DNA from: Patescibacteria group bacterium | Lineage (GTDB): Bacteria; Patescibacteriota; Patescibacteriia; GWA2-46-9 | Direction: 5' to 3' | NCBI GenBank assembly: GCA_041675205.1 | Contig: JBAYUF010000002.1 | Coordinates: 68,568-132,567, forward strand | Length of the DNA: 64,000 nt | In this document: piece by piece, positions 4,181 through 55,127 of the stretch | Layout: the number at the start of each line of letters is the position of its first letter | Numbering within the stretch: position 1 is the first letter of the stretch | Translations under genes and position numbers: made by a program | The notes under the pieces: generated by a model | Database searches by the model: none | Told to the model about the DNA's origin: nothing | Seen by the model: only the letters and a program-made list of their open reading frames with translations

Positions 4181-5422
4181 TTATCCTATTGGTGGTCCTT
4201 CAAGGTAGGTACCGAGATGCTCATTCGATATCGTCAGCACCTCTGGCCATTTGTAACCAAGACCCGTGAAAACATCGCCTGATAAAAATAGTCGACGTTT
4301 ATTGTCTTGCAATAAATAGACAGCCGGTGCGTTTGCTGTTTTTACAACCCTAGCGGTGGGGTAAGAAGTAATATCGATTGTATCAACCACGAGCACATTG
4401 CCCCAGTAGTTATTTGGGTACGACACGAGCGCGGTTGGCGAAGGAAGCGCAATCTTTAGCCACTGTCTGTTTGGCCGTGTCGAGAGAAAATAAACAGTCG
4501 CATCCTCGGGCGTTCGAAGTAGTCGCGCGTCTGGATACTTGTTGAGCTCGGCGCGAGAAATGGTGCGGATAGTATTGTAGTCGTACCCATAGTTAGTGAA
4601 TGATGTTGGGCTTGTTATGTAGTGACGGAATCCATTGGCGTAGAGAGCGTAGACGTCCGGGCTGTTTGCAGTTTTGACGAGCCCCACTGCAGGCGTGTAC
4701 TCACCCGTGCTCGCCCCAAGGACTCGGCCAGGTGTAGTCGTTGGCTTGTCGTTTGATGGCGCAGGGGTAGAAGTAGACAACGCCTCAAGGCCGTACGAGC
4801 GTGCATCGGTGATTGTACAACTAGCTGGTAGTGGGTAGTAATGAAGCGCGCTTCCGGTAACAGTAAAGGAATACTGCGAGCCAGGTGTATGCCGTTCAGT
4901 AAAATAACTGTTTAGTTCATGGACACCTTTGGTCAAGGTAATCTTTTTAACGCCGCTCTTTGCAAATTTTGCGTCACCGAGATCCAGCACCATAGTGTCG
5001 TCAATGCGTAACCAGGAATCGTTGTTTGAGGTAACGCGAAATTCATACTCTCCGGTTGCGGATACCACGAACGCACTACGCCAATGAACAGCGAAGTGGT
5101 ACGGGTCGCCCAGTTTCCCGGTGTCAACCGGAAAGAATTTAGCGCCGAAATTAATAGTTTGGTCTACACGGTCGAAGACACGATATTCTGGGTTGTACCA
5201 GTAGTTATCATCCGCCACCTCTGGAATATAATTTTCAATGTCGTCTTCTACGCCAATGTCATCTTCCGCCAGGTTGTAGTATTGGCCATAGAAGCCACGT
5301 TCAAAAACAACCATATTACGGTCACACGTTGCTGCGGCTGCCGTCTCTAGAGAAGTGAAGGCAGCAGTAGGCACGAGCAGGGCTGCGACAAAAAAAGAAA
5401 TTGTTTTGCGCGATATTTTCAT
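4181..5422 (-). CDS. secreted PA14-like domain protein with C-terminal tandem ~60-aa repeats
   Basis: Likely start MKISRK (inner Met of the ORF), giving signal peptide MKISRKTISFFVAALLVPTAAFTS. The middle region FAVHWRSAFVVSATGEYEFRVTSNNDSWLRIDDTMVLDLG fits the PA14 pattern. Two C-terminal repeats share VKTAN.P.VY.L...N..R..I.S...F...GY.W. Confidence 0.5.
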   Translation of the reverse strand: MKISRKTISFFVAALLVPTAAFTSLETAAAATCDRNMVVFERGFYGQYYNLAEDDIGVEDDIENYIPEVADDNYWYNPEYRVFDRVDQTINFGAKFFPVDTGKLGDPYHFAVHWRSAFVVSATGEYEFRVTSNNDSWLRIDDTMVLDLGDAKFAKSGVKKITLTKGVHELNSYFTERHTPGSQYSFTVTGSALHYYPLPASCTITDARSYGLEALSTSTPAPSNDKPTTTPGRVLGASTGEYTPAVGLVKTANSPDVYALYANGFRHYITSPTSFTNYGYDYNTIRTISRAELNKYPDARLLRTPEDATVYFLSTRPNRQWLKIALPSPTALVSYPNNYWGNVLVVDTIDITSYPTARVVKTANAPAVYLLQDNKRRLFLSGDVFTGLGYKWPEVLTISNEHLGTYLEGPPIG

Positions 5423-21656: not shown

Positions 21657-22143
21657 TCATCAACTTTTAAAAGGGAGGCCGCCAGGTTTGAACCAAAGCG
21701 GCCTTGTGAGCAGGGCGAACCTGACTCTAGGTGCCGGAGGTTAATCCGGCTTCATGTTTCAAATTTTTTCCCCAACCGGAGGCTTAGGGGCAAAGCCTGA
21801 CCTGGCTAGGAAGCAGGTCCCTGATGAAGTCAGCATTTTTCTCCGTGCCACGGGGGAAAAAACTGACGTTCACCCGTCCATTCTCATGGACGGACGTGAC
21901 CGACCCTCTTCTGCCGGGGTCGATACCCGGAATCTCAACCGCGAGTACTCTCGCGTTTTGTTGGAGGCCAGCCTCTTCCACCTCACCACCACCATTTCTC
22001 GTTGCCTTCATGTCCGTATCCCTGTACTGCGGAGCTAGGTGTTGTAGGGCAAGCTGCTCCGCCTGCTTGCGACTACGAGGTTGCTCTTATCATATTGGTT
22101 GTCAACCAAAGTGGTCATTGCGACGTGGTCGCAATGTTTAAAA

Positions 22144-22292
22144 AGTCAGTAGTCCCACAGCAGCGGGGCAACAAGAGAGTCAGTAGTCCCACAGCAGCGG
22201 GGCAACAAGAGAGTCAGTAGTCCCACAGCAGCGGGACAACAAGAGAGTCAGTAGTCCCACAGCAGTGGGGCAACAAGAGAGTCAGTAGTCCC
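22144..22292. repeat. 34-bp perfect-to-near-perfect tandem repeat, 4.4 copies
   Basis: Unit AGTCAGTAGTCCCACAGCAGCGGGGCAACAAGAG x4 (two copies carry single substitutions) plus a 13-nt partial copy. No spacers. Preceded by the inverted repeat CATTGCGAC-GTG-GTCGCAATG. Confidence 0.9.
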
Positions 22293-22569
22293 GAAATGTA
22301 TACAACTCTCTAGCTCATTGATATAATATAGGCACTGGACTGGTGTGGTAGCAACATAAGTGGGTGCGTCGCAGGAATTCTTCCCGCCACACATACATCA
22401 ACTGCGACAACGCCGTTGTCACACTACCCATTTCAGATCAGAAGCCCCGCGCCAGAGACCAAAAATCTGGCGCGGGACCAACTTCATAAAACTTTTTATA
22501 TGTGTTGCGGCCCGCCTTCTCTTGCGAAAAGGCGGGCCGCGGTCGAAAAAGAGGATGGGGTACGGATCC

Positions 22570-26615: not shown

Positions 26616-26663
26616 TACGGTTTTTGCATATTCCCCTAAGATAAAAAAGGGGAGTATGCTGGT

Positions 26664-26693
26664 ATGTTTCCATGTACTAGTACATGGAAACAT
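26664..26693. promoter_or_regulatory. perfect 30-bp palindrome carrying the TGTACTAGTACA (TrpR-operator-like) core
   Basis: ATGTTTCCATGTACTAGTACATGGAAACAT. Lies between the convergent DUF378 and ychF genes. Confidence 0.5.
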
Positions 26694-26715
26694 AGTATGT
26701 AACAACTGTTTGGTG

Positions 26716-40868: not shown

Positions 40869-42362
40869 TTACACCTTCTTGAATAACCCGAACAGTTGCC
40901 GTGAACGATTTAATTCAAGCTTAATGCGTTCTCTGGCCGTTCTTGTTTTAACGAATTGCAGCCAGTCTGGTGACGGGCGAGCTCGCTTTTTGTCGATGAC
41001 AATATCAACCATATCACCAGACTTAAGTGGCGTTGAAAGGGGCATCAGCTTGTTATTAATACGCGCCGCGACACAGTGGTTACCAATGTCTGAGTGAATG
41101 TGATAGGCAAAGTCTACGGGTGTGGCTTGATCGGGGAGTGCAATGACGTCTCCGCCGGGAGTGAAGACAAAAATATTTTCAGGGAAGACATCAATTTTTA
41201 AGTGCTCGAGATACTCGGTGGTGTCGCGAATTTCTTTCTGCAATTTTACGAGCTCTGTTACCCATGCGTACCGTGGGCTGTTCATTTTTATGCCTTCCTT
41301 AGGCTTACCTTGTTCGGTGTAGTACCAGTGTGCGGCTGGGCCGTAGTGTGATTCTTCATCCATGGCTTTGGTGCGAATTTGGAATTCAACGATTTCGCCA
41401 GGGCCAACGAACACGGTCGTGTGCAGCGATTGATAACCGTTTGGCTTCGGTTGGGCGATGTAGTCTTTAATACGGCCACGGAGCGGCTTCCAGAGTTGGT
41501 GAATGATGCCAAGGACGGCGTAACATTCGGTAACGTTTTCAACAATCACGCGTACGGCTACGAGGTCATAAATTTTTGAGATATCACGGTCGTGGCGCAG
41601 CAGTTTTTTATAAAGACTGTACAGAAACTTGGCACGCCCTTCGATGTCGAGCACCGTGATAGTTTGGTTTTCATCAAGTTTATCGCGCAGTAGTGCCATT
41701 ACTTTTGCCAAGTTCTTTTCTTTACTTGGCGAGGTTGTGGCCATGAGCTGCGATACCCAGGCGTACGATTCTTGGTCGGTGTATTTGAACGACAGGTCTT
41801 CTAGTTGACCTTTAATTTCCCACATGCCGAGGCGATGCGCGATGGGGGCGAATATTTCCATACTTTCGAGCGCAATGCGCTGGCGTTTTTCTGGCGCTAA
41901 GGCGTCGAGCGTTTCCAGGTTGTGCAATCGGTCCGCGAATTTAATGAGAACGACCCGAACGTCTTTTGAAATGGCTAAAAACATTTTTCGCAGGTTTTCC
42001 ACGTAACGCTCCATGCCTCGGTACTTGAGCGTGCCGAGTTTTGTGATGCCTTCCACCAGCGCCGCCACATCAACGCCAAAATTTTCTCGAATGTCTGGCA
42101 CGGTGTATGAGGTATCTTCAGGAACATCGTGCAACAATCCGGCGATAACCGTGTTCAAATCGACTCGCATGGTGGAGAGCTTGTTCGCAACTGCCAAGGC
42201 GTGCGTGATGTAGGGTTCGCCGTTGGTGCGCTTTTGGCCCTGATGTGCCTGGTCGGCAAATTCATAAGCCAGACGAACCATATCAAGATCAGCTCCGGGA
42301 AATTGTGCTGCGAGTCGTTTGAGAAGTTGCGTGAGTACTTGGGGCTCCTTTGGCTTCTCCAT
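40869..42362 (-). CDS. short RelA/SpoT-family (p)ppGpp synthetase/hydrolase (HD + synthetase + TGS; no ACT domain)
   Basis: HD motif (LLHDVPED), synthetase domain, C-terminal TGS. Start taken at MEKPKEP. Confidence 0.8.
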   Translation of the reverse strand: MEKPKEPQVLTQLLKRLAAQFPGADLDMVRLAYEFADQAHQGQKRTNGEPYITHALAVANKLSTMRVDLNTVIAGLLHDVPEDTSYTVPDIRENFGVDVAALVEGITKLGTLKYRGMERYVENLRKMFLAISKDVRVVLIKFADRLHNLETLDALAPEKRQRIALESMEIFAPIAHRLGMWEIKGQLEDLSFKYTDQESYAWVSQLMATTSPSKEKNLAKVMALLRDKLDENQTITVLDIEGRAKFLYSLYKKLLRHDRDISKIYDLVAVRVIVENVTECYAVLGIIHQLWKPLRGRIKDYIAQPKPNGYQSLHTTVFVGPGEIVEFQIRTKAMDEESHYGPAAHWYYTEQGKPKEGIKMNSPRYAWVTELVKLQKEIRDTTEYLEHLKIDVFPENIFVFTPGGDVIALPDQATPVDFAYHIHSDIGNHCVAARINNKLMPLSTPLKSGDMVDIVIDKKRARPSPDWLQFVKTRTARERIKLELNRSRQLFGLFKKV

Positions 42363-42373
42363 AAAGGTTATTT

Positions 42374-44590
42374 CTACGTTTCCGATTGCATGCCGATATA
42401 GCCGCAACCCTTCATAGAGCAGCGTACCGCGCCTTTGGCTGCGAAGACAAGCAGTGAGCCGCAGGTTGGGCATTTCTCGCCGGTTGGTTTAGACCATAGC
42501 GCAAATGAGCAGGCCGGGTAGGTGTTGCAGGCAAAAAAGTTTCGCCCACGCTTCGAGCGTTTTTCAACGAGGTCACCCTTACCGCAGCCAGGACATGGTA
42601 CCCCGGTGGATTTCACGATTGGTTTAATTTTTTTGCATTCTGGATAGCCGGTGCAACCAAGGAAGGTACCAAATCGCCCACGTTTAACGGCCATGGGCTT
42701 GCCACATAATTCACATGGTTCTGCCGCAAATGTTTCTGCTGCCACCGCTTCGTCGCTCCCCGCTAGCGGCTTTGTGGTGCGACATTCCGGGTATCCGGTG
42801 CAGGCCAGGAACCGACCAAAGCGACCGAACTTTACCACCATCGGTTTACCGCAGGTGGCGCAGACTTGGTCACTGGCTTCTTGGGTTATGCTCTCTTTAC
42901 TGATTTCAGCATCTTTTACTATAAGGTGCTCTTTGAATGGGGTGTAGAAAGCACGCAGCACGGGCACGAGCTGTTTTTCACCCTCAGCAATTTCATCGAG
43001 CTCGCGTTCCAGCGTGGCGGTGAACTCAAAGTCAATGATTTCTGGGAAGTGTTCAACTAAAAGGTCATTTACCAATTCAGCGAGTTCGGTGGGATACAGC
43101 CGTCGTTCTTTTTTTTCAACGTAACCGCGGTCTGTAATGGTGCTAATGGTTGGGGCGTAGGTTGATGGTCGGCCGATGCCATGTTCTTCAAGCGATTTAA
43201 TGAGCGTAGCGTCTGAGAAGCGAGCGGGGGGTTCGGTGAAGTGTTGCGTGCCGCCAACTTTTTGTAGCATTGCCGTTGCTCCAACAGTAACGTCCGGCAA
43301 GTCGACGTCGTTTGCATCGTTATAGTAGACCTTGCGCCAACCATCAAAAGAAAGAACTGAGCCACTCGCACGGAGTGTATAGTCGGGAGCTTGCACGGTC
43401 GCCACGTCAATTGTGGTAGTGCGAACAATTGCCTCCGGCATTTGCGAAGCTATGGCCCGTCGCCAGATGAGTTCGTAGAGCTTCTTTTGTTTCGGGTCGA
43501 GGTACTCTGCCACTGACTCTGGAGTGCGAAGCGCGCTTGATGGGCGAATGGCTTCGTGTGCCTCTTGGGCGTTTTTGGAACGTGATTTAAATCGACGCGG
43601 CTCTGTTGCGTACTCTTTGCCGTAGGTTTCCAGAAGGTACGTCTGTGCTTCAGTTAAAAATTTCTCTGACAGGTTCATTGAATCGGTTCTCATATACGTA
43701 ATGAGACCGACGGCACCTTCGTCACCAATGGTTACCCCCTCGTACAGTTGCTGCGCCACCATCATGGTTTGCTTCGGACTCATATTGAGGCGACGGCTAG
43801 CCTCTTGCTGCAGAATAGATGTGGTGAAAGGCGGGGGTGGTGTTTTCTTCGCTTCGCGGCCGTTTACGTCCGCAATTTTGTAGCTGGCTTTTTCAAGATC
43901 AGCGACAATTGCATCGGCCGCCGATATTCCGGGTAGGGCAAATTTATCGAGCCGCTCACCATTACGGGTGAACAGTGCGGCAGTTATAGTGCCAGTGGGT
44001 ACGGTAAAGTCAGCTTCAATCGTCCAGTACTCTTCAGCATTGAAGGCTCGTATTTCTCGTTCTCGTTCCACAACCATTCGTACGGCGACCGATTGTACAC
44101 GACCGGCTGAGAGACCTCGATAAATTTTTCGCCATAGAAATGGAGAGAGTTCGTAGCCAACTAATCTGTCGAGCATTCGTCGCGCCTGTTGGGAGTCGAC
44201 CATTCGCTCGTCAATGGTGCGTGGGTGCTCAAGCGCTTCAGCAATCGCTTCGTCAGTAATTTCATGAAAAGCGATACGTTGTGAGTTTTCGTTGGTGAGG
44301 CCAAGTGCTTCTTTGAGGTGCCAGGCAATAGCTTCCCCTTCACGGTCTTCATCAGTTGCCAGAATGACCATGTCAGCCTTTTTGGCCTTGAGCTTTAAAG
44401 CAGTCAGATTTTTCTTCGCTTTCAAAGGCACGACGTACTGCGGTGCGAAATCGTTCTCTATATCGATACCCATTTTCGACTTCGGCAAGTCGCGGATGTG
44501 GCCATAGGAAGACATGACAGAAAATTTCTTGCCAAGGAACTTCTGAATGGTTTTGGCTTTTGTTGGCGATTCAACGATGACGAGTTTCAT
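42374..44590 (-). CDS. topA: DNA topoisomerase I
   Basis: TOPRIM plus active-site Tyr region, with multiple C-terminal C4 zinc ribbons. Confidence 0.9.
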   Translation of the reverse strand: MKLVIVESPTKAKTIQKFLGKKFSVMSSYGHIRDLPKSKMGIDIENDFAPQYVVPLKAKKNLTALKLKAKKADMVILATDEDREGEAIAWHLKEALGLTNENSQRIAFHEITDEAIAEALEHPRTIDERMVDSQQARRMLDRLVGYELSPFLWRKIYRGLSAGRVQSVAVRMVVEREREIRAFNAEEYWTIEADFTVPTGTITAALFTRNGERLDKFALPGISAADAIVADLEKASYKIADVNGREAKKTPPPPFTTSILQQEASRRLNMSPKQTMMVAQQLYEGVTIGDEGAVGLITYMRTDSMNLSEKFLTEAQTYLLETYGKEYATEPRRFKSRSKNAQEAHEAIRPSSALRTPESVAEYLDPKQKKLYELIWRRAIASQMPEAIVRTTTIDVATVQAPDYTLRASGSVLSFDGWRKVYYNDANDVDLPDVTVGATAMLQKVGGTQHFTEPPARFSDATLIKSLEEHGIGRPSTYAPTISTITDRGYVEKKERRLYPTELAELVNDLLVEHFPEIIDFEFTATLERELDEIAEGEKQLVPVLRAFYTPFKEHLIVKDAEISKESITQEASDQVCATCGKPMVVKFGRFGRFLACTGYPECRTTKPLAGSDEAVAAETFAAEPCELCGKPMAVKRGRFGTFLGCTGYPECKKIKPIVKSTGVPCPGCGKGDLVEKRSKRGRNFFACNTYPACSFALWSKPTGEKCPTCGSLLVFAAKGAVRCSMKGCGYIGMQSET

Positions 44591-44731
44591 AATAGGCAGA
44601 AGCGTACTCGAGGGTTCTGTAGGGTGTCAACCTTAGTGGTCATTTCGATAACATCAGAATGTTTAAAAAGCCAGTAGGCCCGTTACCTTAATTAACATTC
44701 AAAATTTTTTGAATGTATTGAATATTGGGTA

Positions 44732-44761
44732 TCCCGCCATTTTAGGCGGGACATCTTTTTT
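44732..44761 (+). terminator. plus-strand terminator-like hairpin with T6, in the intergenic region between two minus-strand genes
   Basis: TCCCGCC-ATTTTA-GGCGGGA then CATCTTTTTT. Flanked by palindromes CATTCAAAATTTTTTGAATG and CATTCCTG-TTTAG-CAGGAATG. Confidence 0.45.
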
Positions 44762-44883
44762 CATTCCTGTTTAGCAGGAATGCATAGATTATTAGTAGTG
44801 CCGCTAGCAAGCGGCGCAGCAGCGGGGCAACACTTCGACTCGCTCCGCTCGCTCAGTGTAAATAGTTTAATTTGTTTGGATTC

Positions 44884-45981
44884 TTACAATTTTATATATC
44901 GTTTCCCGCCCACATCTCGCACGAGGCCAGAAAGCTCAAGCGAGAGGAGTTCAGTGGCGAGTATTGTTGTTGATAATGAACATCGTGCCGCTAGGTCATC
45001 GAAGTATATTGGTTCGTGGGAAAGTGCCGCCATTATGTTTGTCGCGGTTGCGCTCAGTTGTTGATTGAGTTTTTTTGTTGGCGCTACTCTCGGTTCTAAC
45101 CCTAATGCAACGAAAACGTCTTGCGCGCCAGTAATCACGTGCGCTCCGTCGTGTAGTAGCGCGTTGCAGCCGGCGGCGTTTTCTTCGGTGATGCGCCCAG
45201 GGATGGCTAAAATTTCACGGTTATAGTCGAGAGCCAAACGAGCGGTGATGAGGGCACCGCTTTTCAGTGGTGCTTCGATGACCAATGTTCCAAGGCTTAG
45301 ACCGGCTATGATGCGATTGCGTTCCGGGAAATGATGTTGACTCGGCCCAACGCCGGGTGGGTACTCGCTCATAAGGAGGCCACCGGATTCGACAATTTTC
45401 GTTGCCAGTTGACGATGTTCTGGTGGGTAGATATCTGATTCTGCAATGGAACTACCGAGCACAGCAATAGTTCGGCCGCCAACTTCAAGTGTCGCCTCAT
45501 GCACGATTGCGTCTATGCCACGCGCCAGACCGCTCACCGTTGTTAGCTCATTTTTTGCCAGCGCTTGCGTTAGATGAAGCGCGGCTACCTTTCCGTACTC
45601 AGTCATTTTACGTGTTCCGACTATTGCGATTGTCGGTTCGACAGGTTTGTTCAGGGGGAGTACACCACGGTAAAAAAATAGGTGTGGTGCGTCGGGTATT
45701 TCTTTTAGGAGTGCGGGGTAGGTACTATCTGTCTTGATGACAAATTCTATGTTTTCGCGACGCAGTTTCTCTTGTGTTGTTGTAGAATCGTTGGTTGTAC
45801 GATAGGTAAAAAATTTCTCAATTGTTTCATGCTCAAAGTTCAGGCCGCGCAATGTTTCACGCGATGCACGCCAAGCTGCTTCACCGCTCGGCAGATACCT
45901 GGCCAGCTTTCTTATTTGTATAGGCGCCAAAACGAAGCTGAGTGCCAGCCAAAAATCTCTATCTTGCGTTTCAGTGGCCAT
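44884..45981 (-). CDS. dprA: DNA-processing protein DprA
   Basis: Rossmann-like DprA core (GLARGIDAIVHEA...IAVLGSS). Confidence 0.85.
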   Translation of the reverse strand: MATETQDRDFWLALSFVLAPIQIRKLARYLPSGEAAWRASRETLRGLNFEHETIEKFFTYRTTNDSTTTQEKLRRENIEFVIKTDSTYPALLKEIPDAPHLFFYRGVLPLNKPVEPTIAIVGTRKMTEYGKVAALHLTQALAKNELTTVSGLARGIDAIVHEATLEVGGRTIAVLGSSIAESDIYPPEHRQLATKIVESGGLLMSEYPPGVGPSQHHFPERNRIIAGLSLGTLVIEAPLKSGALITARLALDYNREILAIPGRITEENAAGCNALLHDGAHVITGAQDVFVALGLEPRVAPTKKLNQQLSATATNIMAALSHEPIYFDDLAARCSLSTTILATELLSLELSGLVRDVGGKRYIKL

Positions 45982-46000
45982 TTCTTAATACTATAAGGGT

Positions 46001-46234
46001 ATGTCTTGCATTAAGTGCGGAACACATCTTCATCCAGACGAACATGGTGATTGCCGTGAGTGCGGTGCTGCGTACGACGAGGTAAATAAAGAGGTTCGGA
46101 TTTCAGGACAGCGGCAAGGAGAGACGGAAGGCAGCGGAGGTGCGCAAGAGGAAGCATTGCGAGAAGAGGATAGTAGTGAGAAACAGCTTAATTTTTTTGG
46201 TAGAGAAAATAGACGAAGTCGACGAGCGGCGTAG
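46001..46234 (+). CDS. small zinc-ribbon protein
   Basis: CIKCGTHL...CRECG, followed by a charged tail. Confidence 0.35.
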   Translation: MSCIKCGTHLHPDEHGDCRECGAAYDEVNKEVRISGQRQGETEGSGGAQEEALREEDSSEKQLNFFGRENRRSRRAA

Positions 46235-46257
46235 CCTTTATGTAAAAATTTTAGCAC

Positions 46258-46288
46258 GGCTGCTTCCTTGACAGGAAGCCTTTTTCTT
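46258..46288 (+). terminator. rho-independent terminator
   Basis: GGCTGCTTCC-TTGACA-GGAAGCC then TTTTTCTT. Confidence 0.7.
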
Positions 46289-46299
46289 GTTAAGGTGCC

Positions 46300-46516
46300 G
46301 CGTCGAGTACGGGTAGTAATGCGCTACTGCACTCGAAATGAAATAACATTTCCGGGGTTCTTATCTGGGAGCGACGAACGAACCACTACCCCTCCTAAGT
46401 GGGACAAGTAGTCAGCGAGTAGTGTGGTTAAGGTAACTACCAAACACCCCACTCGCTCCCAGGTAAGAGGTTCGGAAAATAAACAGCACCGACGTACGTC
46501 GGTGCTGTTTTGTTGT
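46300..46516 (+). ncRNA. candidate small structured RNA with its own terminator
   Basis: Nested long-range pairings CTGGGAGCGA...CACTCGCTCCCAG and AACCACTAC...GTAGTGTGGTT. Ends in the perfect hairpin CAGCACCGACG-TA-CGTCGGTGCTG plus TTTTGTTGTTT. No ORF longer than 60 aa. Confidence 0.35.
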
Positions 46517-46978
46517 TTGAGTTATTTTTTCTTGCACTTAAGGCTCGCTTTTTAGATAAGATTTTTATTACTCTTTTGCTTGCTTAAAAGAATAGAGACC
46601 AGTCCGCCGTAGGCCGATCCGCCTTTGGCGGAAAAATGGCACCCTCGCTTCGGCAGCTACGCGGTTTCTCGCAAAAGTTGCAGCACAGCCATAAACTTCC
46701 CTTCGCACACGCTCAGGGTCGAACAGTATGGCTGTTTCTCGCTGCAACTTTTCCTTAACCGCTGGGCTGCCTTTGCTATGGGGTTCGTGGGAGTCATATA
46801 AAAACTTTTTGAAAAGGGAGCGCCGCGGGTACGCTCCAGGTCGGTTGACCGGAAAACGTACCCGCGGCGGGTGCCATGTCAGGGTTGGATTCCCTGTTGA
46901 CACGAGTCAGCGATGCTGACGTTGTTGAAGAAATTCAGATGTGCGAAGCGACTGGAAGCCGCCCCGCTTGGTTCGGGT

Positions 46979-47446
46979 TCAGGCCTTCTTGTGGCTGTGG
47001 CCGCCTTTGTCGAGGATGCTGGCGGCTTCGTAGTTGTGCGAGTTGTTGTCGGTGCCGACCTTGGTGTCGATTCCGATGGATCCCTCCTTGTTGCGCACGA
47101 GCGCCGGGGAAATCGTCTTCTCGGTCTTCAGGATCGCGTTGGCGGTGCCGGTGCCGACCTTGGTGCTGGTCGAAAGCGCGGTGCCCTCCATGGCGTCAGC
47201 GATGTCGGCACGATGAGCCGTCAGCGCAATCGCAGGATCGTCGGCGGCGATGGCCGAGGTGAGGGCCGGCATCGTGGTCGTCTTGCCGGTGCCGTTCGGA
47301 ATGATGGCCGTGCCGGTGTTCCCGACGTCGACGGGAGCGGCGGCGATGGCCTGCAGAGCGGGGTTGCCAGCCGTAGCAGCCGGCGGCGACGAATACACCA
47401 GGAGTGCGGCGAGGAGGGCGAACCCTCCGTAACGGATCAACTTCAT
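46979..47446 (-). CDS. secreted Ala/Thr/Gly-rich low-complexity protein, high GC
   Basis: AAGGAG ribosome-binding site. Signal peptide MKLIRYGGFALLAALLVYSSPPAATA. Confidence 0.45.
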   Translation of the reverse strand: MKLIRYGGFALLAALLVYSSPPAATAGNPALQAIAAAPVDVGNTGTAIIPNGTGKTTTMPALTSAIAADDPAIALTAHRADIADAMEGTALSTSTKVGTGTANAILKTEKTISPALVRNKEGSIGIDTKVGTDNNSHNYEAASILDKGGHSHKKA

Positions 47447-47721
47447 GATGGAACTCCTTCTATTGTCTTCCGATTGTCATTGAACGTTTCGCCTTCAAGC
47501 TAGTTTCTCGAGGGAATCCCGAGCCTATATCTAGTATCTTGAGTGGCATCCCAAGTCTAGCTTCTTTTCTTGAAGACTTCCCGAATGGGCAACGATATAA
47601 TATAATTTTTTCCTTTTTTGTCAACAAATTTTCCGCAGTTTTAAATATCTAGGATTGACCTTTTGCCCTTCTTTTGCTTTACTATGCGGTCGCTTCAACC
47701 GTAGAATTTGTTTGCGACTAC

Positions 47722-47754
47722 TGACGAAACGTCGGTACATCAACCAAGGAGGGC
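47722..47754 (+). promoter_or_regulatory. conserved 5' element, copy 1 (hairpin GACG-AAA-CGTC + GGTACATCAACCAAGGAGG)
   Basis: Shares about 28 nt, with identical spacing to the start codon, with copy 2 at 47911-47940. Confidence 0.5.
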
Positions 47755-47758
47755 TATC

Positions 47759-47887
47759 GTGAACCGTCGCCGTGCACTCATACTCGTTCTTTTCGTCGCC
47801 GGGGTCGTGGCTCTTTTCGACAGCTACTCTGGCGCGTTCAAGGTTAACGCGGCAGGAAACTGCCGCGGGTATTCACTCAGCCGTTAG
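47759..47887 (+). CDS. candidate 42-aa secreted/membrane peptide (GTG start)
   Basis: AAGGAGG ribosome-binding site. VNRRRALILVLFVAGVVALF... Below the 60-aa cutoff of the ORF track. Confidence 0.3.
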   Translation: MNRRRALILVLFVAGVVALFDSYSGAFKVNAAGNCRGYSLSR

Positions 47888-47910
47888 GAGGTTTTTCGTT
47901 TCAACCCAAC

Positions 47911-47940
47911 CGACGGAACGTCGGTAGACAACTTAGGAGG
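47911..47940 (+). promoter_or_regulatory. conserved 5' element, copy 2 (hairpin CGACG-GAA-CGTCG + GTAGACAACTTAGGAGG)
   Basis: See copy 1. Confidence 0.5.
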
Positions 47941-47947
47941 AAGTCCA

Positions 47948-48397
47948 ATGAACGTTCGTTCCATTTTTGCCCTGGCTCTTACGGCGGTTGGTGTGATCGC
48001 CATCCTCCACAGTGACGCCGGAAAGTGGGCAGCGCCCGCGAAGCCGGTCGTTGCTGAAGCGGACTGCCCGGGCAGCACCCATGCTGTTCGGCACCACCAC
48101 CGCGAGGCCGAGGAGTACATCCTCGGCGGCGACGTTGTTCGGGCCATTCACGAGATCCAGCTGGCTTCGTTGTTCTCGTGTGACGTCAGCCCTGGCATCA
48201 GACACCTTCAGGTGCTGGCCTGGAACAGCCTCGCTCAGGCTCATTTCCAGCAGGGAGCTTGGCCGGACAATGGTCATGCACAGCAGGCGCTCGAGGAGAT
48301 TCGGCATGCGCAGCGACTTCTTACGATGGTGGCCGACCACGAATCTTCGTGGCCCCATTCGATGATCATCGACCACGAATCTTCGTTGCCACATTAG
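47948..48397 (+). CDS. secreted His-rich protein, high GC
   Basis: Signal peptide MNVRSIFALALTAVGVIAILHS. HAVRHHH and a repeated DHESS(W/L)PH C-terminus. Confidence 0.45.
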   Translation: MNVRSIFALALTAVGVIAILHSDAGKWAAPAKPVVAEADCPGSTHAVRHHHREAEEYILGGDVVRAIHEIQLASLFSCDVSPGIRHLQVLAWNSLAQAHFQQGAWPDNGHAQQALEEIRHAQRLLTMVADHESSWPHSMIIDHESSLPH

Positions 48398-48567
48398 CCC
48401 GTGCCCACCGGCCGCTCTCAATCTCGAGGGCGGCCGATACTTCTTTATATAAACTATTGACTTTGTGGCAGTTTTCAGCTAAATTATCGTGTTCGATTCC
48501 GGCTCGCACTCTAACAATAACTGCAGACAACCGCTCTGACATACGTTCAGGGCAAAGGAGACGCTAG

Positions 48568-49680
48568 ATGCGTCAGTTCTTCGTTCGTTTCCTTGGCGCC
48601 ATCTTGGCGTCCATCACCATGACCCTCGCTCCTGCGCCGGCTTCGGCTGGAGCGGGGAGTCAGATCGCATTGCTGTCCGAGTTTTGCCTCTACCCCGATT
48701 GCGGGGCGAGGCTTGCCTACACCTCTCATGAGTGGGGGTGGGCCAATCCGGCCACCCTCACCGAAACATTCGATCTCGGCCTCGACGACTGGGCGTCGGT
48801 CGGTGGTGCCTACTTCTACGGAAGCACCATCTACTCCGGTACGATCACCGCTGGCTTCAAGCCGGTGGTCGTGCAGCTCAACTACGTCAACGCCGCTGTT
48901 GACGGTGAGCTGCCCTCGAGCGACCTCGACCTTGCGTTCGAAACGTCACGCTGGCGGCTGTCGTTGGCGTGGGACCTGGCGTCCGTCGGCATCGATGGCT
49001 TGTCCATCGGCGTCATCGGCGTCCTGCCTGGAAGCGAGAATAAGGTTGGGATTTCAACCGAGATTCCTGACTTCGGCGACCTCGACCTCGTGAAGGCTCA
49101 CGAGGAACCCGGTTGGGACTTTACTCTCGGGATGCTCTACGAGATGGGCGAGCGCGATTGGCTGCGTTTTGGTGCGACGTTGAACGTCGCATCTTACGAC
49201 AGCAGCGTTGACGCGCTCGACCTCGACAGCGGTGAGGTCTACCGGACCAACTCCACGTCGAACCTCTGGTTCGGCCGGCTGGGTGCGACGGTACATCCGT
49301 TCGTGCCCATGGGCCTTGCCAGTGGTGAGTCCTCGTGGGACGAGTGGCTGCGCAAGGTGGAGATTTCAGCCGACCTTCGTGTCGTGAATATTTCCATCTC
49401 GGGCGAAGATACCATTCGCCCGATCGACGCCTTCTTCGGCGTCGATGTTCCCTTGCTCCCGAGGCATTGGAACCCGCTGGCGAAGTATGTTGAACTCGTC
49501 GGTGTCAGTGGCGTCGGGACCGATGGTAGCTGGGGCGCAGGCCTCGGCATCTACGGTCAAGGGCCGCTTCGGTGGCTGACCTGCGACACTATGTACTCTT
49601 CCCAGCCCGGGGGTGACCTCGGGAAGGATTTCACGCTGAGCGGCATCGGCTGCACAGCATCAATGCCGCTGCCTTTCTAG
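48568..49680 (+). CDS. secreted OMP-like beta-barrel candidate ending in Phe
   Basis: Signal peptide ...LAPAPASA. Alternating Gly/aromatic pattern. C-terminus ...ASMPLPF. Own TTGACT-17-TAAATT promoter. Confidence 0.4.
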   Translation: MRQFFVRFLGAILASITMTLAPAPASAGAGSQIALLSEFCLYPDCGARLAYTSHEWGWANPATLTETFDLGLDDWASVGGAYFYGSTIYSGTITAGFKPVVVQLNYVNAAVDGELPSSDLDLAFETSRWRLSLAWDLASVGIDGLSIGVIGVLPGSENKVGISTEIPDFGDLDLVKAHEEPGWDFTLGMLYEMGERDWLRFGATLNVASYDSSVDALDLDSGEVYRTNSTSNLWFGRLGATVHPFVPMGLASGESSWDEWLRKVEISADLRVVNISISGEDTIRPIDAFFGVDVPLLPRHWNPLAKYVELVGVSGVGTDGSWGAGLGIYGQGPLRWLTCDTMYSSQPGGDLGKDFTLSGIGCTASMPLPF

Positions 49681-49716
49681 GAGGACTGGCAGCGCCCATT
49701 TCGTTTGGAGGGAAAG

Positions 49717-49748
49717 GGGCTTCGTGAACACACGAAGCTCTTTTTCTA
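49717..49748 (+). terminator. rho-independent terminator after the OMP-like gene
   Basis: GGGGCTTCGTG-AACA-CACGAAGCTC then TTTTTCTATT. Confidence 0.75.
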
Positions 49749-49777
49749 TTGAAAAGTTCAGGAAAATGTGCTATAAT
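49749..49777 (+). promoter_or_regulatory. consensus sigma70 promoter giving a (near-)leaderless decarboxylase mRNA
   Basis: TTGAAA, 17-nt spacer, TATAAT. The ATG lies 6 nt after the -10. Confidence 0.6.
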
Positions 49778-49782
49778 TCACT

Positions 49783-50976
49783 ATGAAATTTACAATTTCG
49801 CCTGTTTATATGGCAAAAACAAAAGAGCTTGGACTGGCGCCACTCATAGCAAAAAGCGAAACGCGGGAAACACCCGCGTTCTGGTTCAGTAAGCGGCAAG
49901 TGGCGGCGAACTATCAACGGTTCCGCCGCGGTCTGCCAAACGTGAAGATTTTTTTCACATTAAAATCAAATGCCGTTCCGGCTGTGGTGCACGTTTTAGT
50001 TCAAGAGGGTGCTCATTTTGACGTGGCGTCACTGGGTGAAATTCGACTTCTCAGAAAATTAAAGGTAAGCCCAGAGCGGATGTTTTTTACGACGCCAGTA
50101 AAAATTCCGGCGGAGATTCGGGCAGCGTACCGCATTGGCGTCCGCCATTTTGTGGCAGATTCGATGATGGAAATTTCGAAGTTGGCTCGCTACGCACCAG
50201 GCAGCAATGTCTTCATTCGATTCCGCACCAGCAACAAAGGTAGTCAGTGGCCGTTGTCGCGACGATTTGGTGCTGAGACGTCACAAGTGTTGGGGTTGCT
50301 GCAATTTACTGTAGAGCAACGGTTGGTACCATATGGCTTGGCATTTCATGTTGGGTCGCAATGTTCAAACGTACAGAACTGGCAACAGGGTATACGCCGA
50401 GCGGCAGCTCTGGTGAATACGTTCAAACAGAAAAGTGGCTACGACCTCAAGGTTATTGATATTGGTGGTGGTTTCCCTGTGTGCTACACGAAAGATGTGC
50501 CATCGCTTGAGACAATTTTCAGTGCCATTCAGCAAAGTGTGAAACGGTATTTGCCTGGTTTAGAAATTTGGGCAGAGCCGGGACGAGCAATGGTGGCTGA
50601 CACTGGTTTCGCGGTGACGACGGTCATTGGTCGTACTAAGCGAGGGCGGGACAATTGGTTATTCTGTGACCTCGGTGCGTTCAACGGGCTACTAGAATTA
50701 ATTGAGCCAAGTTCGCGAGGGTTTGCGTATGAAATTTATGCACCAGTGAATAAGGTGAATGGGAGTGCCAAGCGAGTGAGTAACGGTAACGGCAAGAAAA
50801 AAATGTTTACTCTCACCGGCCCATCGTGTGATGGTGATGACATTATTATAGAGCACGTAAACCTAGCCGATATTGGTGTGGGGGACAGAATCTACCTTTT
50901 GAAAACAGGCGCGTATAGCATTATGTATGCCTCGAAATTTTGCGGAAATAAGCAGCCCAAGGTGCACGTTGTGTAG
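49783..50976 (+). CDS. fold-type III PLP decarboxylase (Orn/DAP/Arg decarboxylase family)
   Basis: FFTLKSN (PLP-Lys region), HVGSQ, GGGFP, GPSCDGDD. Confidence 0.7.
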   Translation: MKFTISPVYMAKTKELGLAPLIAKSETRETPAFWFSKRQVAANYQRFRRGLPNVKIFFTLKSNAVPAVVHVLVQEGAHFDVASLGEIRLLRKLKVSPERMFFTTPVKIPAEIRAAYRIGVRHFVADSMMEISKLARYAPGSNVFIRFRTSNKGSQWPLSRRFGAETSQVLGLLQFTVEQRLVPYGLAFHVGSQCSNVQNWQQGIRRAAALVNTFKQKSGYDLKVIDIGGGFPVCYTKDVPSLETIFSAIQQSVKRYLPGLEIWAEPGRAMVADTGFAVTTVIGRTKRGRDNWLFCDLGAFNGLLELIEPSSRGFAYEIYAPVNKVNGSAKRVSNGNGKKKMFTLTGPSCDGDDIIIEHVNLADIGVGDRIYLLKTGAYSIMYASKFCGNKQPKVHVV

Positions 50977-54662: not shown

Positions 54663-54705
54663 TTGCTAGATTTTTTATTGTTAAATACAATGTACTAGTA
54701 CATTG
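54663..54705 (+). promoter_or_regulatory. promoter (TTGCTA-17-TACAAT) overlapped by the 18-bp perfect palindrome CAATGTACTAGTACATTG (TrpR-type operator)
   Basis: Palindrome at 54688-54705 overlaps the -10 and the predicted transcription start of the trpR-like gene. Confidence 0.55.
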
Positions 54706-54755
54706 ATATGGGGAACGTAACAAAAAAGTACATTAGTGAAGTTGAGGAAGTAGTT

Positions 54756-55001: not shown

Positions 55002-55029
55002 CACCACATCTCTTTCTGCTATAGTTCAC

Positions 55030-55041
55030 TGTACTAGTACA
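55030..55041 (+). promoter_or_regulatory. second TGTACTAGTACA operator, upstream of the trp leader
   Basis: Exact 12-bp core within the imperfect palindrome CACTGTACTAGTACACTG. Confidence 0.55.
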
Positions 55042-55058
55042 CTGAAACAAAGAAAAGT

Positions 55059-55127
55059 ATGATTTCTATACACATTGAAGCAAACGCTCGTTGGTGGTCC
55101 GTTCTCTATCTCAGAGGGCGAGCCTAG
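55059..55127 (+). CDS. trpL: trp leader peptide, 22 aa, with tandem Trp codons
   Basis: ATG ATT TCT ATA CAC ATT GAA GCA AAC GCT CGT TGG TGG TCC ... TAG translates to MISIHIEANARWWSVLYLRGRA. Confidence 0.5.
   Translation: MISIHIEANARWWSVLYLRGRA

Follow-up and report, generated by a model that had tools for sequence, protein, structure and literature searches.

A structured small RNA gene near dprA in Uhrbacteria-like Patescibacteria and the palindromic spacer beside it

Between a small Zn-ribbon open reading frame (ORF) and a convergent 155-aa gene, the 64,000-nt stretch of a Patescibacteria group bacterium analyzed here (contig JBAYUF010000002.1; hereafter the window) carries two adjacent segments rich in hairpins, and the question raised by this locus is whether either of them encodes a functional RNA. 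A sequence-only reading had described both as non-coding and structured, and both are indeed well folded against dinucleotide shuffles. Segment 1 (46283-46520, plus strand) has a minimum free energy of -95 kcal/mol and a z-score of -6.1, while segment 2 (46590-46910) reaches -7.8 on the plus strand and -8.8 on the minus strand. Of the two, segment 1 alone is conserved in syntenic loci. Comparison among these loci shows segment 1 to be a self-contained gene for a predicted structured small RNA, belonging to a family outside Rfam and found at the same position in Uhrbacteria-like Patescibacteria. The explanation that best accounts for the whole locus, in which segment 1 is this small RNA gene and segment 2 would be an unconserved spacer or 3′ untranslated region (UTR), is considered likely; that the RNA acts through one of its loops is a more tentative part of it.

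Syntenic loci were fetched via homologs of DprA, together with one metagenome pattern scan that used one strict DNA pattern; they are given L numbers below where they must be told apart. The window belongs to a metagenome-assembled genome. Its DprA matches at 100% a protein named "Patescibacteria group bacterium," and the next-best relatives are 47-52% identical, those with a name being Candidatus Uhrbacteria. In a separate genome scan with DprA, no close relative was found, the best match reaching 41%. In syntenic loci with DprA at 47-52%, segment 1 retains ~70% nucleotide identity (nhmmer/blastn, E 1e-14 to 1e-30). A covariance model built from six sequences (R1) finds eight distinct members, two of them from genomes named Candidatus Uhrbacteria, at 112-145 bits in the sense direction vs. 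28-38 bits antisense (134 bits on the plus strand and 34.5 bits on the minus strand of the window). The metagenome pattern scan returned nine loci, comprising five chance matches and four true members, of which two represent new lineages. Since the RNA core is ~80% identical while the neighboring housekeeping protein DprA is at ~50%, strong selection on the RNA is indicated. Within ±4-6 kb of dprA, R1 has no match in Sungiibacteriota, Magasanikbacteria, Falkowbacteria, Kuenenbacteria, or L034; in the Magasanikbacteria, Falkowbacteria, and Kuenenbacteria loci, the genes upstream of dprA are arranged differently. A pattern search of viral contigs did not find the segment 1 pattern, no other copy exists within the 64-kb window, and nothing relevant to the loop or stem sequences emerged from the literature searched. 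As a candidate new family, limited as far as sampled to Uhrbacteria-like bacteria of the Candidate Phyla Radiation (CPR), the segment 1 RNA is well supported.

For the conserved part of this RNA, RNAalifold and a manual structure agree on a three-way junction, with compensatory changes in 20/43 pairs according to RNAalifold. When the structure was tested on eight sequences, 93.8% of cells were paired vs. 31-48% with the partners slid, and 23 of the 42 pairs changed on both sides vs. 2-6 with the partners slid; the observed covariation score was reached by none of 500 shuffles. The elements of the core, all on the plus strand, are as follows.

46347..46479, plus strand: conserved core, 133 nt (R1, RNAalifold, and pair counts)
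46350-46372 with 46455-46477, plus strand: helix P1, 21 pairs (RNAalifold and pair counts)
46373-46375 with 46411-46413, plus strand: helix P2a, 3 bp, covarying from GAC/GUC to GGU/ACC
46376-46378 (GAA) opposite 46407-46410 (AGUA), plus strand: S-turn-like (loop E type) motif, flanked by P2a
46383-46386 with 46399-46402, plus strand: helix P2b, 4-7 bp among lineages, with strong covariation
46387..46398, plus strand: apical loop of P2b, 12 nt, UACCCCUCCUAA (alignments)
46421-46429 with 46445-46453, plus strand: helix P3, 9 bp, in which 7 pairs change on both sides
46432-46434 with 46439-46441, plus strand: helix P3b (RNAalifold and pair counts)

Parts of this fold are held constant to a degree that pairing does not require. 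The inner 9 bp of P1 are invariant, and the helix sequences CUGGGAGCG/CGCUCCCAG as well as the stretch AAGAG.UUCGGA are conserved beyond pairing needs. In the apical loop of P2b, ACCCCUCCUA (46388-46397) is invariant in 8/8 lineages, framed as (N)ACCCCUCCUA(A); it contains CCUCC and resembles an anti-Shine-Dalgarno sequence. A junction strand, A.C.AGU, comes after P2, and the P3 arm bears a conserved internal loop and a GGC-UUCU-GCC hairpin. The sequence-only reading had envisaged a rod held together by two long-range arms. One of these, CTGGGAGCGA / TCGCTCCCAG, survives as the inner part of P1 with support from covariation, whereas the other, AACCACTAC / GTAGTGTGGTT, is specific to the window, with 68% of cells paired vs. 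65% in shuffles and no covariation, and its bases belong to P2b and P3 in the conserved fold. In place of the rod, the comparison gives the three-way junction, and a hairpin separate from it lies on its 5′ side.

The core lies within a predicted transcription unit in which a 5′ hairpin, an A/U-rich linker, the three-way-junction core, and an intrinsic terminator follow one another. Its extent nearly equals the interval 46300-46516 that had been proposed as an independent small RNA of ~200 nt with its own terminator, a proposal that is borne out by the comparison. The unit consists of the following features.

46302..46519 (both ends approximate), plus strand: predicted small RNA transcript, ~215 nt, its ends taken from the promoter and terminator positions
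46262..46279, plus strand: hairpin GCTTCC-TTGACA-GGAAGC followed by CTTTTTCTT, previously read as a first terminator (terminator scan)
46268..46296, plus strand: promoter with -35 box TTGACA (46268-46273), 17-nt spacer ending in TGT, and -10 box TAAGGT (46291-46296) (upstream alignment)
46303..46336, plus strand: P0, a 5′ hairpin of variable length, UCGAGU...ACUCGA (sequences compared)
46481..46510, plus strand: intrinsic terminator with a 13-bp perfect palindromic stem and a U tract to ~46519 (terminator scan)

In 8/8 lineages, TTGACA is followed by exactly 17 nt, TAnnnT, a further ~7 nt, and the conserved start GT|TAAG, placing the predicted transcription start of the window at ~46302-46303. 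Across lineages, TGn often precedes the TAnnnT box. A strict sigma-70 consensus scan did not flag the promoter because its -10 box fits the consensus at 3/6 positions only. The hairpin at 46262-46279 is not conserved in relatives, whereas the TTGACA within it is invariant. Given the invariant TTGACA, the exact 17-nt spacer, and TAnnnT, the supposed first terminator is the region of the promoter of the segment 1 RNA, and the view that the RNA begins directly after another terminator is abandoned, as the hairpin is built around the RNA's own -35 box. In the window genome, this hairpin may also terminate the upstream ORF. P0 is present in 7/8 lineages, being absent in L015, and the base of its stem covaries (UUAAG/CUUAA, UCGAG/CUCGA, UUGAG/CUCAA). 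The terminator, correctly recognized from the sequence of the window, stands 3′ of the core in 8/8 lineages with no conservation of its sequence; since its minus-strand flank is also U-rich, it may act in both directions. In L013 (~4400-4520, minus strand), an insertion of ~90 nt rich in CGTATAGC / GCTATACG repeats parts the RNA core from the terminator.

It is tentatively proposed that the segment 1 RNA acts in trans, with its anti-Shine-Dalgarno-like C-rich loop pairing with strong Shine-Dalgarno sites. The exposed loop would pair with strong (U)AGGAGG(G) ribosome-binding sites on a minority of genes, and notable targets would be the small, variable secreted-protein genes that adjoin the RNA. 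Such pairing would modulate the translation or stability of the targets, as the C-rich-loop small RNAs of Firmicutes do. A protein partner may also bind the RNA, as suggested by the invariant helix sequences and the S-turn-like motif. Weak use of Shine-Dalgarno/anti-Shine-Dalgarno pairing has been reported in some Parcubacteria (PMC9297842), and the window agrees with this, with approximately 4-5 of 40 long ORFs having a Shine-Dalgarno-like motif at the right distance and most genes showing no recognizable one within 25 nt of the longest-ORF start. The strong (U)AGGAGG(G) sites that do occur are concentrated in the variable GC-rich block by the RNA, some of them at the ribosome-binding sites of small genes with signal-peptide-like N-termini. 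Loop-complementary sites at ribosome-binding sites of small genes include ACUUAGGAGG at 47934 of the window, before the ATG at 47948, and, near the RNA in relatives, UAGGAGGG in L013, UAGGAGG in L030, and AGGAGGGG in L018.

The closest parallel for this mode of action is provided by the Rsa RNAs and RNAIII, in which unpaired UCCC motifs bind Shine-Dalgarno sequences and a 5′ hairpin is likewise combined with a terminator at the 3′ end (PMC2790875). As in RsaE/RoxS, other Rsa RNAs, and the RNAIII hairpins, a standalone gene has its own promoter, 5′ hairpin, and intrinsic terminator, and the most conserved unpaired element is C-rich and complementary to the Shine-Dalgarno sequence, here ACCCCUCCUA (PMC2790875). 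However, the segment 1 core has no sequence or covariance-model similarity to the RsaE/RoxS family, and it bears one C-rich loop rather than several, with its pairing predicted only. Its scaffold is also more elaborate and more constrained in sequence, with a three-way junction, an S-turn-like motif, and a 21-bp P1, and it occurs in another phylum, in a host genome poor in Shine-Dalgarno sequences.

Several points weigh against this account of the segment 1 RNA. The hypothesis of Shine-Dalgarno targets is post hoc, and CCUCC complements any strong Shine-Dalgarno sequence by construction, with the extra pairing beyond AGGAGG amounting to 1-4 nt. The candidate targets, small proteins encoded behind strong Shine-Dalgarno sites near the RNA, share no homology, and the survey of Shine-Dalgarno-like motifs, having taken longest-ORF starts, is approximate. 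The transcript ends are inferred from sequence. In addition, sampling of the family's distribution was confined to the surroundings of dprA and a single strict DNA pattern, so that the family may reach beyond Uhrbacteria-like lineages. Lastly, the invariant 9-bp helix, the S-turn, and the conserved junction fit a protein-bound or structural RNA better than a base-pairing small RNA.

This last point leads to the main alternative, in which the segment 1 RNA would be a protein-binding scaffold of a ribonucleoprotein (RNP), possibly with the adjacent Zn-ribbon protein, and the loop would serve as a contact with a protein or the ribosome. The ORF concerned is as follows.

46001..46234, plus strand: 77-aa Zn-ribbon ORF (CxxC...CxxCG), divergent from dprA (gene calls)

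A small ORF of this type lies directly 5′ of the RNA on the same strand in all six syntenic lineages with gene calls, and its protein has a basic tail. The constancy of CUGGGAGCG/CGCUCCCAG and AAGAG.UUCGGA, together with the AGUA/GAA motif and the conserved junction, would likewise suit a bound protein. Against this, the Zn-ribbon proteins align weakly, at 29-35% identity with only M, G, C, C, G, and E invariant, compared with ~80% for the RNA core; the 77-aa ORF matches no Pfam family and so brings no Pfam RNA-binding domain, and the adjacency may be mere synteny inherited within one clade. The RNP reading is judged somewhat unlikely. A more far-reaching version combines the two ideas in a new RNA class of Uhrbacteria-like CPR bacteria, presenting an anti-Shine-Dalgarno sequence on a rigid, protein-bound scaffold, possibly with the Zn-ribbon protein as partner, and acting as a global gatekeeper of mRNAs that use the Shine-Dalgarno sequence. 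The controlled mRNAs would then be a minority, such as those for variable secreted or surface proteins, and initiation would otherwise be largely independent of Shine-Dalgarno sequences. This version is improbable.

Could the segment 1 RNA instead be a highly divergent form of a universal housekeeping RNA, such as 6S, 5S, or that of the signal recognition particle (SRP)? In favor of this, the RNA is strongly conserved, has a consensus -35 box, and is encoded by a gene of its own. At the gathering threshold, Rfam identified two tRNAs only in the whole window, and at E<=10 with lax filters, on 1.2 kb and on 185 nt, it gave terminator-like or microRNA noise only. The segment 1 region has no Rfam match to 5S, 6S, SRP, RNase P, transfer-messenger RNA (tmRNA), or any riboswitch or small RNA family, segment 2 likewise matches none of the 6S, RNase P, SRP, and tmRNA models, and ARAGORN called neither a tRNA nor a tmRNA across the two segments. 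The sequence-only reading had considered a 6S-like RNA, and some likeness to 6S RNA (RF00013) is present in the length of ~200 nt, the strong sigma-70-type promoter, the long imperfect helix, and the independent gene. However, the 6S covariance model does not match even at E<=10 on 185 nt, and whereas 6S RNA is a rod closed by its paired 5′ and 3′ ends around a central bubble, the segment 1 RNA has a hairpin of its own at the 5′ end and folds into a three-way junction. The 6S identification is rejected.

The likeness to 5S rRNA (RF00001) is closer by eye, as both comprise a ~100-nt three-way junction on a terminal helix, a 12-13-nt C-rich loop on the first arm (12 nt here), and AGUA-type motifs in a loosely similar order. 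Nevertheless, RF00001, with which parcubacterial 5S genes are normally found (PMC9297842), has no match at E<=10, and global alignment to 5S rRNA of E. coli and of B. subtilis was not significant (z 0.5-2.8). In 5S rRNA a two-stranded loop E lies in the 3′ arm, whereas the S-turn-like motif of the segment 1 RNA lies in the 5′ arm, P3 runs straight into P1, and a loop E partner strand is lacking. The P1 sequence is also invariant rather than covarying, and the flanks (the GUUAAG start and AAGAG.UUCGGA) are conserved. 5S rRNA is likewise rejected, and with R1 finding nothing around dprA in four other Patescibacteria groups, a housekeeping RNA is very unlikely. That the RNA is a riboswitch or other cis-regulatory leader, with its terminator controlling the next gene, is extremely improbable and largely refuted by gene orientation: a structured domain does directly precede an intrinsic terminator, and the next gene is co-directional in L018 and L024, but there it is ~500 nt off past an unalignable spacer, while in the window, L013, L015, and L030 it is convergent, so that the RNA is not a cis-acting leader; in addition, no alternative antiterminator pairing is conserved, and no Rfam riboswitch family matches.

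Segment 2 poses the opposite problem of a strong fold with no relatives. It consists of nested inverted repeats in the 3′ flank of the convergent gene, with the following features.

46603..46909, no strand assigned: nested near-perfect inverted repeats (folding and repeat search)
46603-46632, no strand assigned: hairpin (folding)
46636-46644 with 46869-46877, no strand assigned: closing helix, 9 bp (folding)
46652-46771, no strand assigned: rod with helices of 7, 6, 12, and 9 bp (folding)
46822-46868, no strand assigned: 12-bp hairpin, with a 12/13-bp stem at 46821-46833 / 46857-46869 (folding)
46880-46896 (CAGGG-TTGGATT-CCCTG) and 46898-46909, no strand assigned: small hairpins (folding)
46568..46903, minus strand: 111-aa Arg-rich ORF, spurious
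46979..47446, minus strand: 155-aa gene whose N-terminus resembles a signal peptide, preceded by the Shine-Dalgarno sequence AAGGAG, convergent to the RNA and opening the GC-rich variable block

The 12-bp stem reported earlier is present, as is the hairpin described as T-arm-like, which according to ARAGORN and Rfam is not part of a tRNA. The 111-aa ORF had rightly been suspected of being spurious: it has no hits in 1.84 billion representative proteins and no Pfam family, and it was called by neither of two gene callers. At 46913-47503 (plus strand), a 196-aa Arg/Gly-rich ORF overlaps the 155-aa ORF at 46979-47446 (minus strand), and here the two public gene callers disagree; the 155-aa ORF, with its signal-peptide-like N-terminus and Shine-Dalgarno sequence, looks like the real gene.

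No similar sequence to segment 2 exists in any relative examined, and the spacer 3′ of the RNA is unalignable even between L018 and L024, where the downstream gene is 81% identical. Searches of phages and plasmids with blastn gave no match to segment 2, the 64-kb window contains no other copy of it, and neither an Rfam hit nor a consensus promoter-like site was found in it. G-U pairs make up only 6 of the 105 predicted, and both strands have the same free energy; being composed almost entirely of perfect Watson-Crick helices, the fold favors neither strand. With no homolog, covariation, promoter, or strand signal found, the idea of segment 2 as a functional RNA was not sustained, and conservation and covariation remain confined to segment 1. 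The most likely reading of segment 2 is a lineage-specific palindromic stretch of a hypervariable spacer, or else the 3′ UTR of the convergent 155-aa gene. Transcription of this gene probably continues through segment 2, as its 3′ flank, as far as the terminator of the small RNA, which is palindromic and may work in both directions. A point that counts against this assignment is that the lack of conservation cannot be separated from the scarcity of close relatives, the nearest DprA being 52% identical.

Alternatively, segment 2 could be functional, as a fast-evolving second structured RNA, a palindromic remnant resembling a miniature inverted-repeat transposable element, or a cruciform site acting at the DNA level. 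Its fold is exceptional, as the whole spacer has a z-score of -6.4 vs. -5 to +1 in 16 control windows and contains perfect helices of 9, 12, 9, and 12 bp, and it adjoins a variable GC-rich gene block. L024 carries at the same position (~1780-1930), 3′ of the RNA, a ~150-nt rod of nested perfect inverted repeats that is not homologous to segment 2 and is equally extreme (z -8.3). Yet the spacers of the other four relatives are unremarkable (z -2.2 to -3.2), and neither a reverse transcriptase nor a transposase or integrase domain occurs in the five proteins checked at 46979-50976. Added to the missing homologs, Rfam hit, promoter-like site, strand asymmetry, and second copy in the 64 kb, these observations make a functional segment 2 unlikely. 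ERIC- and Correia-like elements are comparable near-perfect inverted-repeat rods of ~120-130 nt between convergent genes, whereas segment 2 is single-copy in the window, has no terminal-repeat family, and has no homologs found.

Further candidates for this region were rejected. A conserved second RNA 3′ of segment 1 is contradicted by the relatives, as their spacers are mutually unalignable and only those of the window and L024 fold exceptionally. For a diversity-generating retroelement or retron, template/variable-type direct repeats are lacking near the region, as is a reverse-transcriptase domain in the five proteins at 46979-50976. No ARAGORN or Rfam signal exists for a tRNA, or a tRNA gene bearing a group I intron, in segment 2. 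A 96-nt tRNA-Asn predicted by ARAGORN at 48861-48956 lies inside a 370-aa ORF and is a false positive, with no tRNA or intron signal from Rfam at E<=10.

The wider locus includes two further genes on the minus strand.

42374-44590, minus strand: topA (local gene order)
44884-45981, minus strand: dprA (local gene order)

A second assembly (Logan SRR6484325) is 100% identical across 41161-47713, making it unlikely that the arrangement is a one-off assembly artefact. The block at 46900-49750 differs in composition from its surroundings (55-60% GC at 47-50 kb vs. ~50% elsewhere) and encodes small proteins without a Pfam family and with signal-peptide-like N-termini; the equivalent regions in relatives are also variable. 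Of the 11 matches to a 7-nt loop complement in the window, excluding the antisense strand of the RNA gene itself, six fall in this block. A 36-nt tandem duplication (83% identity) at 48324-48395 occupies the 3′ end of the ORF at 47948-48397 and gives a repeated HESSWPH-like peptide.

Repeats also occur elsewhere in the window. At 22110-22313, ahead of an ORF at 22360, a 34-nt unit (AGTCAGTAGTCCCACAGCAGCGGGGCAACAAGAG) occurs five times in tandem, and the 60 nt leading into this array (22097-22156) recur with 78% identity at 44622-44681, between dprA and topA, where the reverse strand has TTGACA just upstream of topA. A palindromic motif centered on TGTACTAGTACA is present in three copies with similar flanks (26659-26705, 54690-54723, and 55016-55062), and these palindromes may be operator-like sites.

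CPR bacteria, or Patescibacteria, have tiny genomes and unusual ribosomes, and to our knowledge hardly any regulatory RNAs have been reported from them. Segment 2 serves as a caution that a very strong folding z-score alone is no proof of function. At a minimum, the segment 1 RNA, for which a promoter, a terminator, and covariation are in hand, could enter Rfam as a clean candidate family. If it does control Shine-Dalgarno mRNAs or form an RNP, it would be among the first regulatory RNAs defined in CPR bacteria, and it would help in studying how variable secreted-protein genes are controlled in these organisms.

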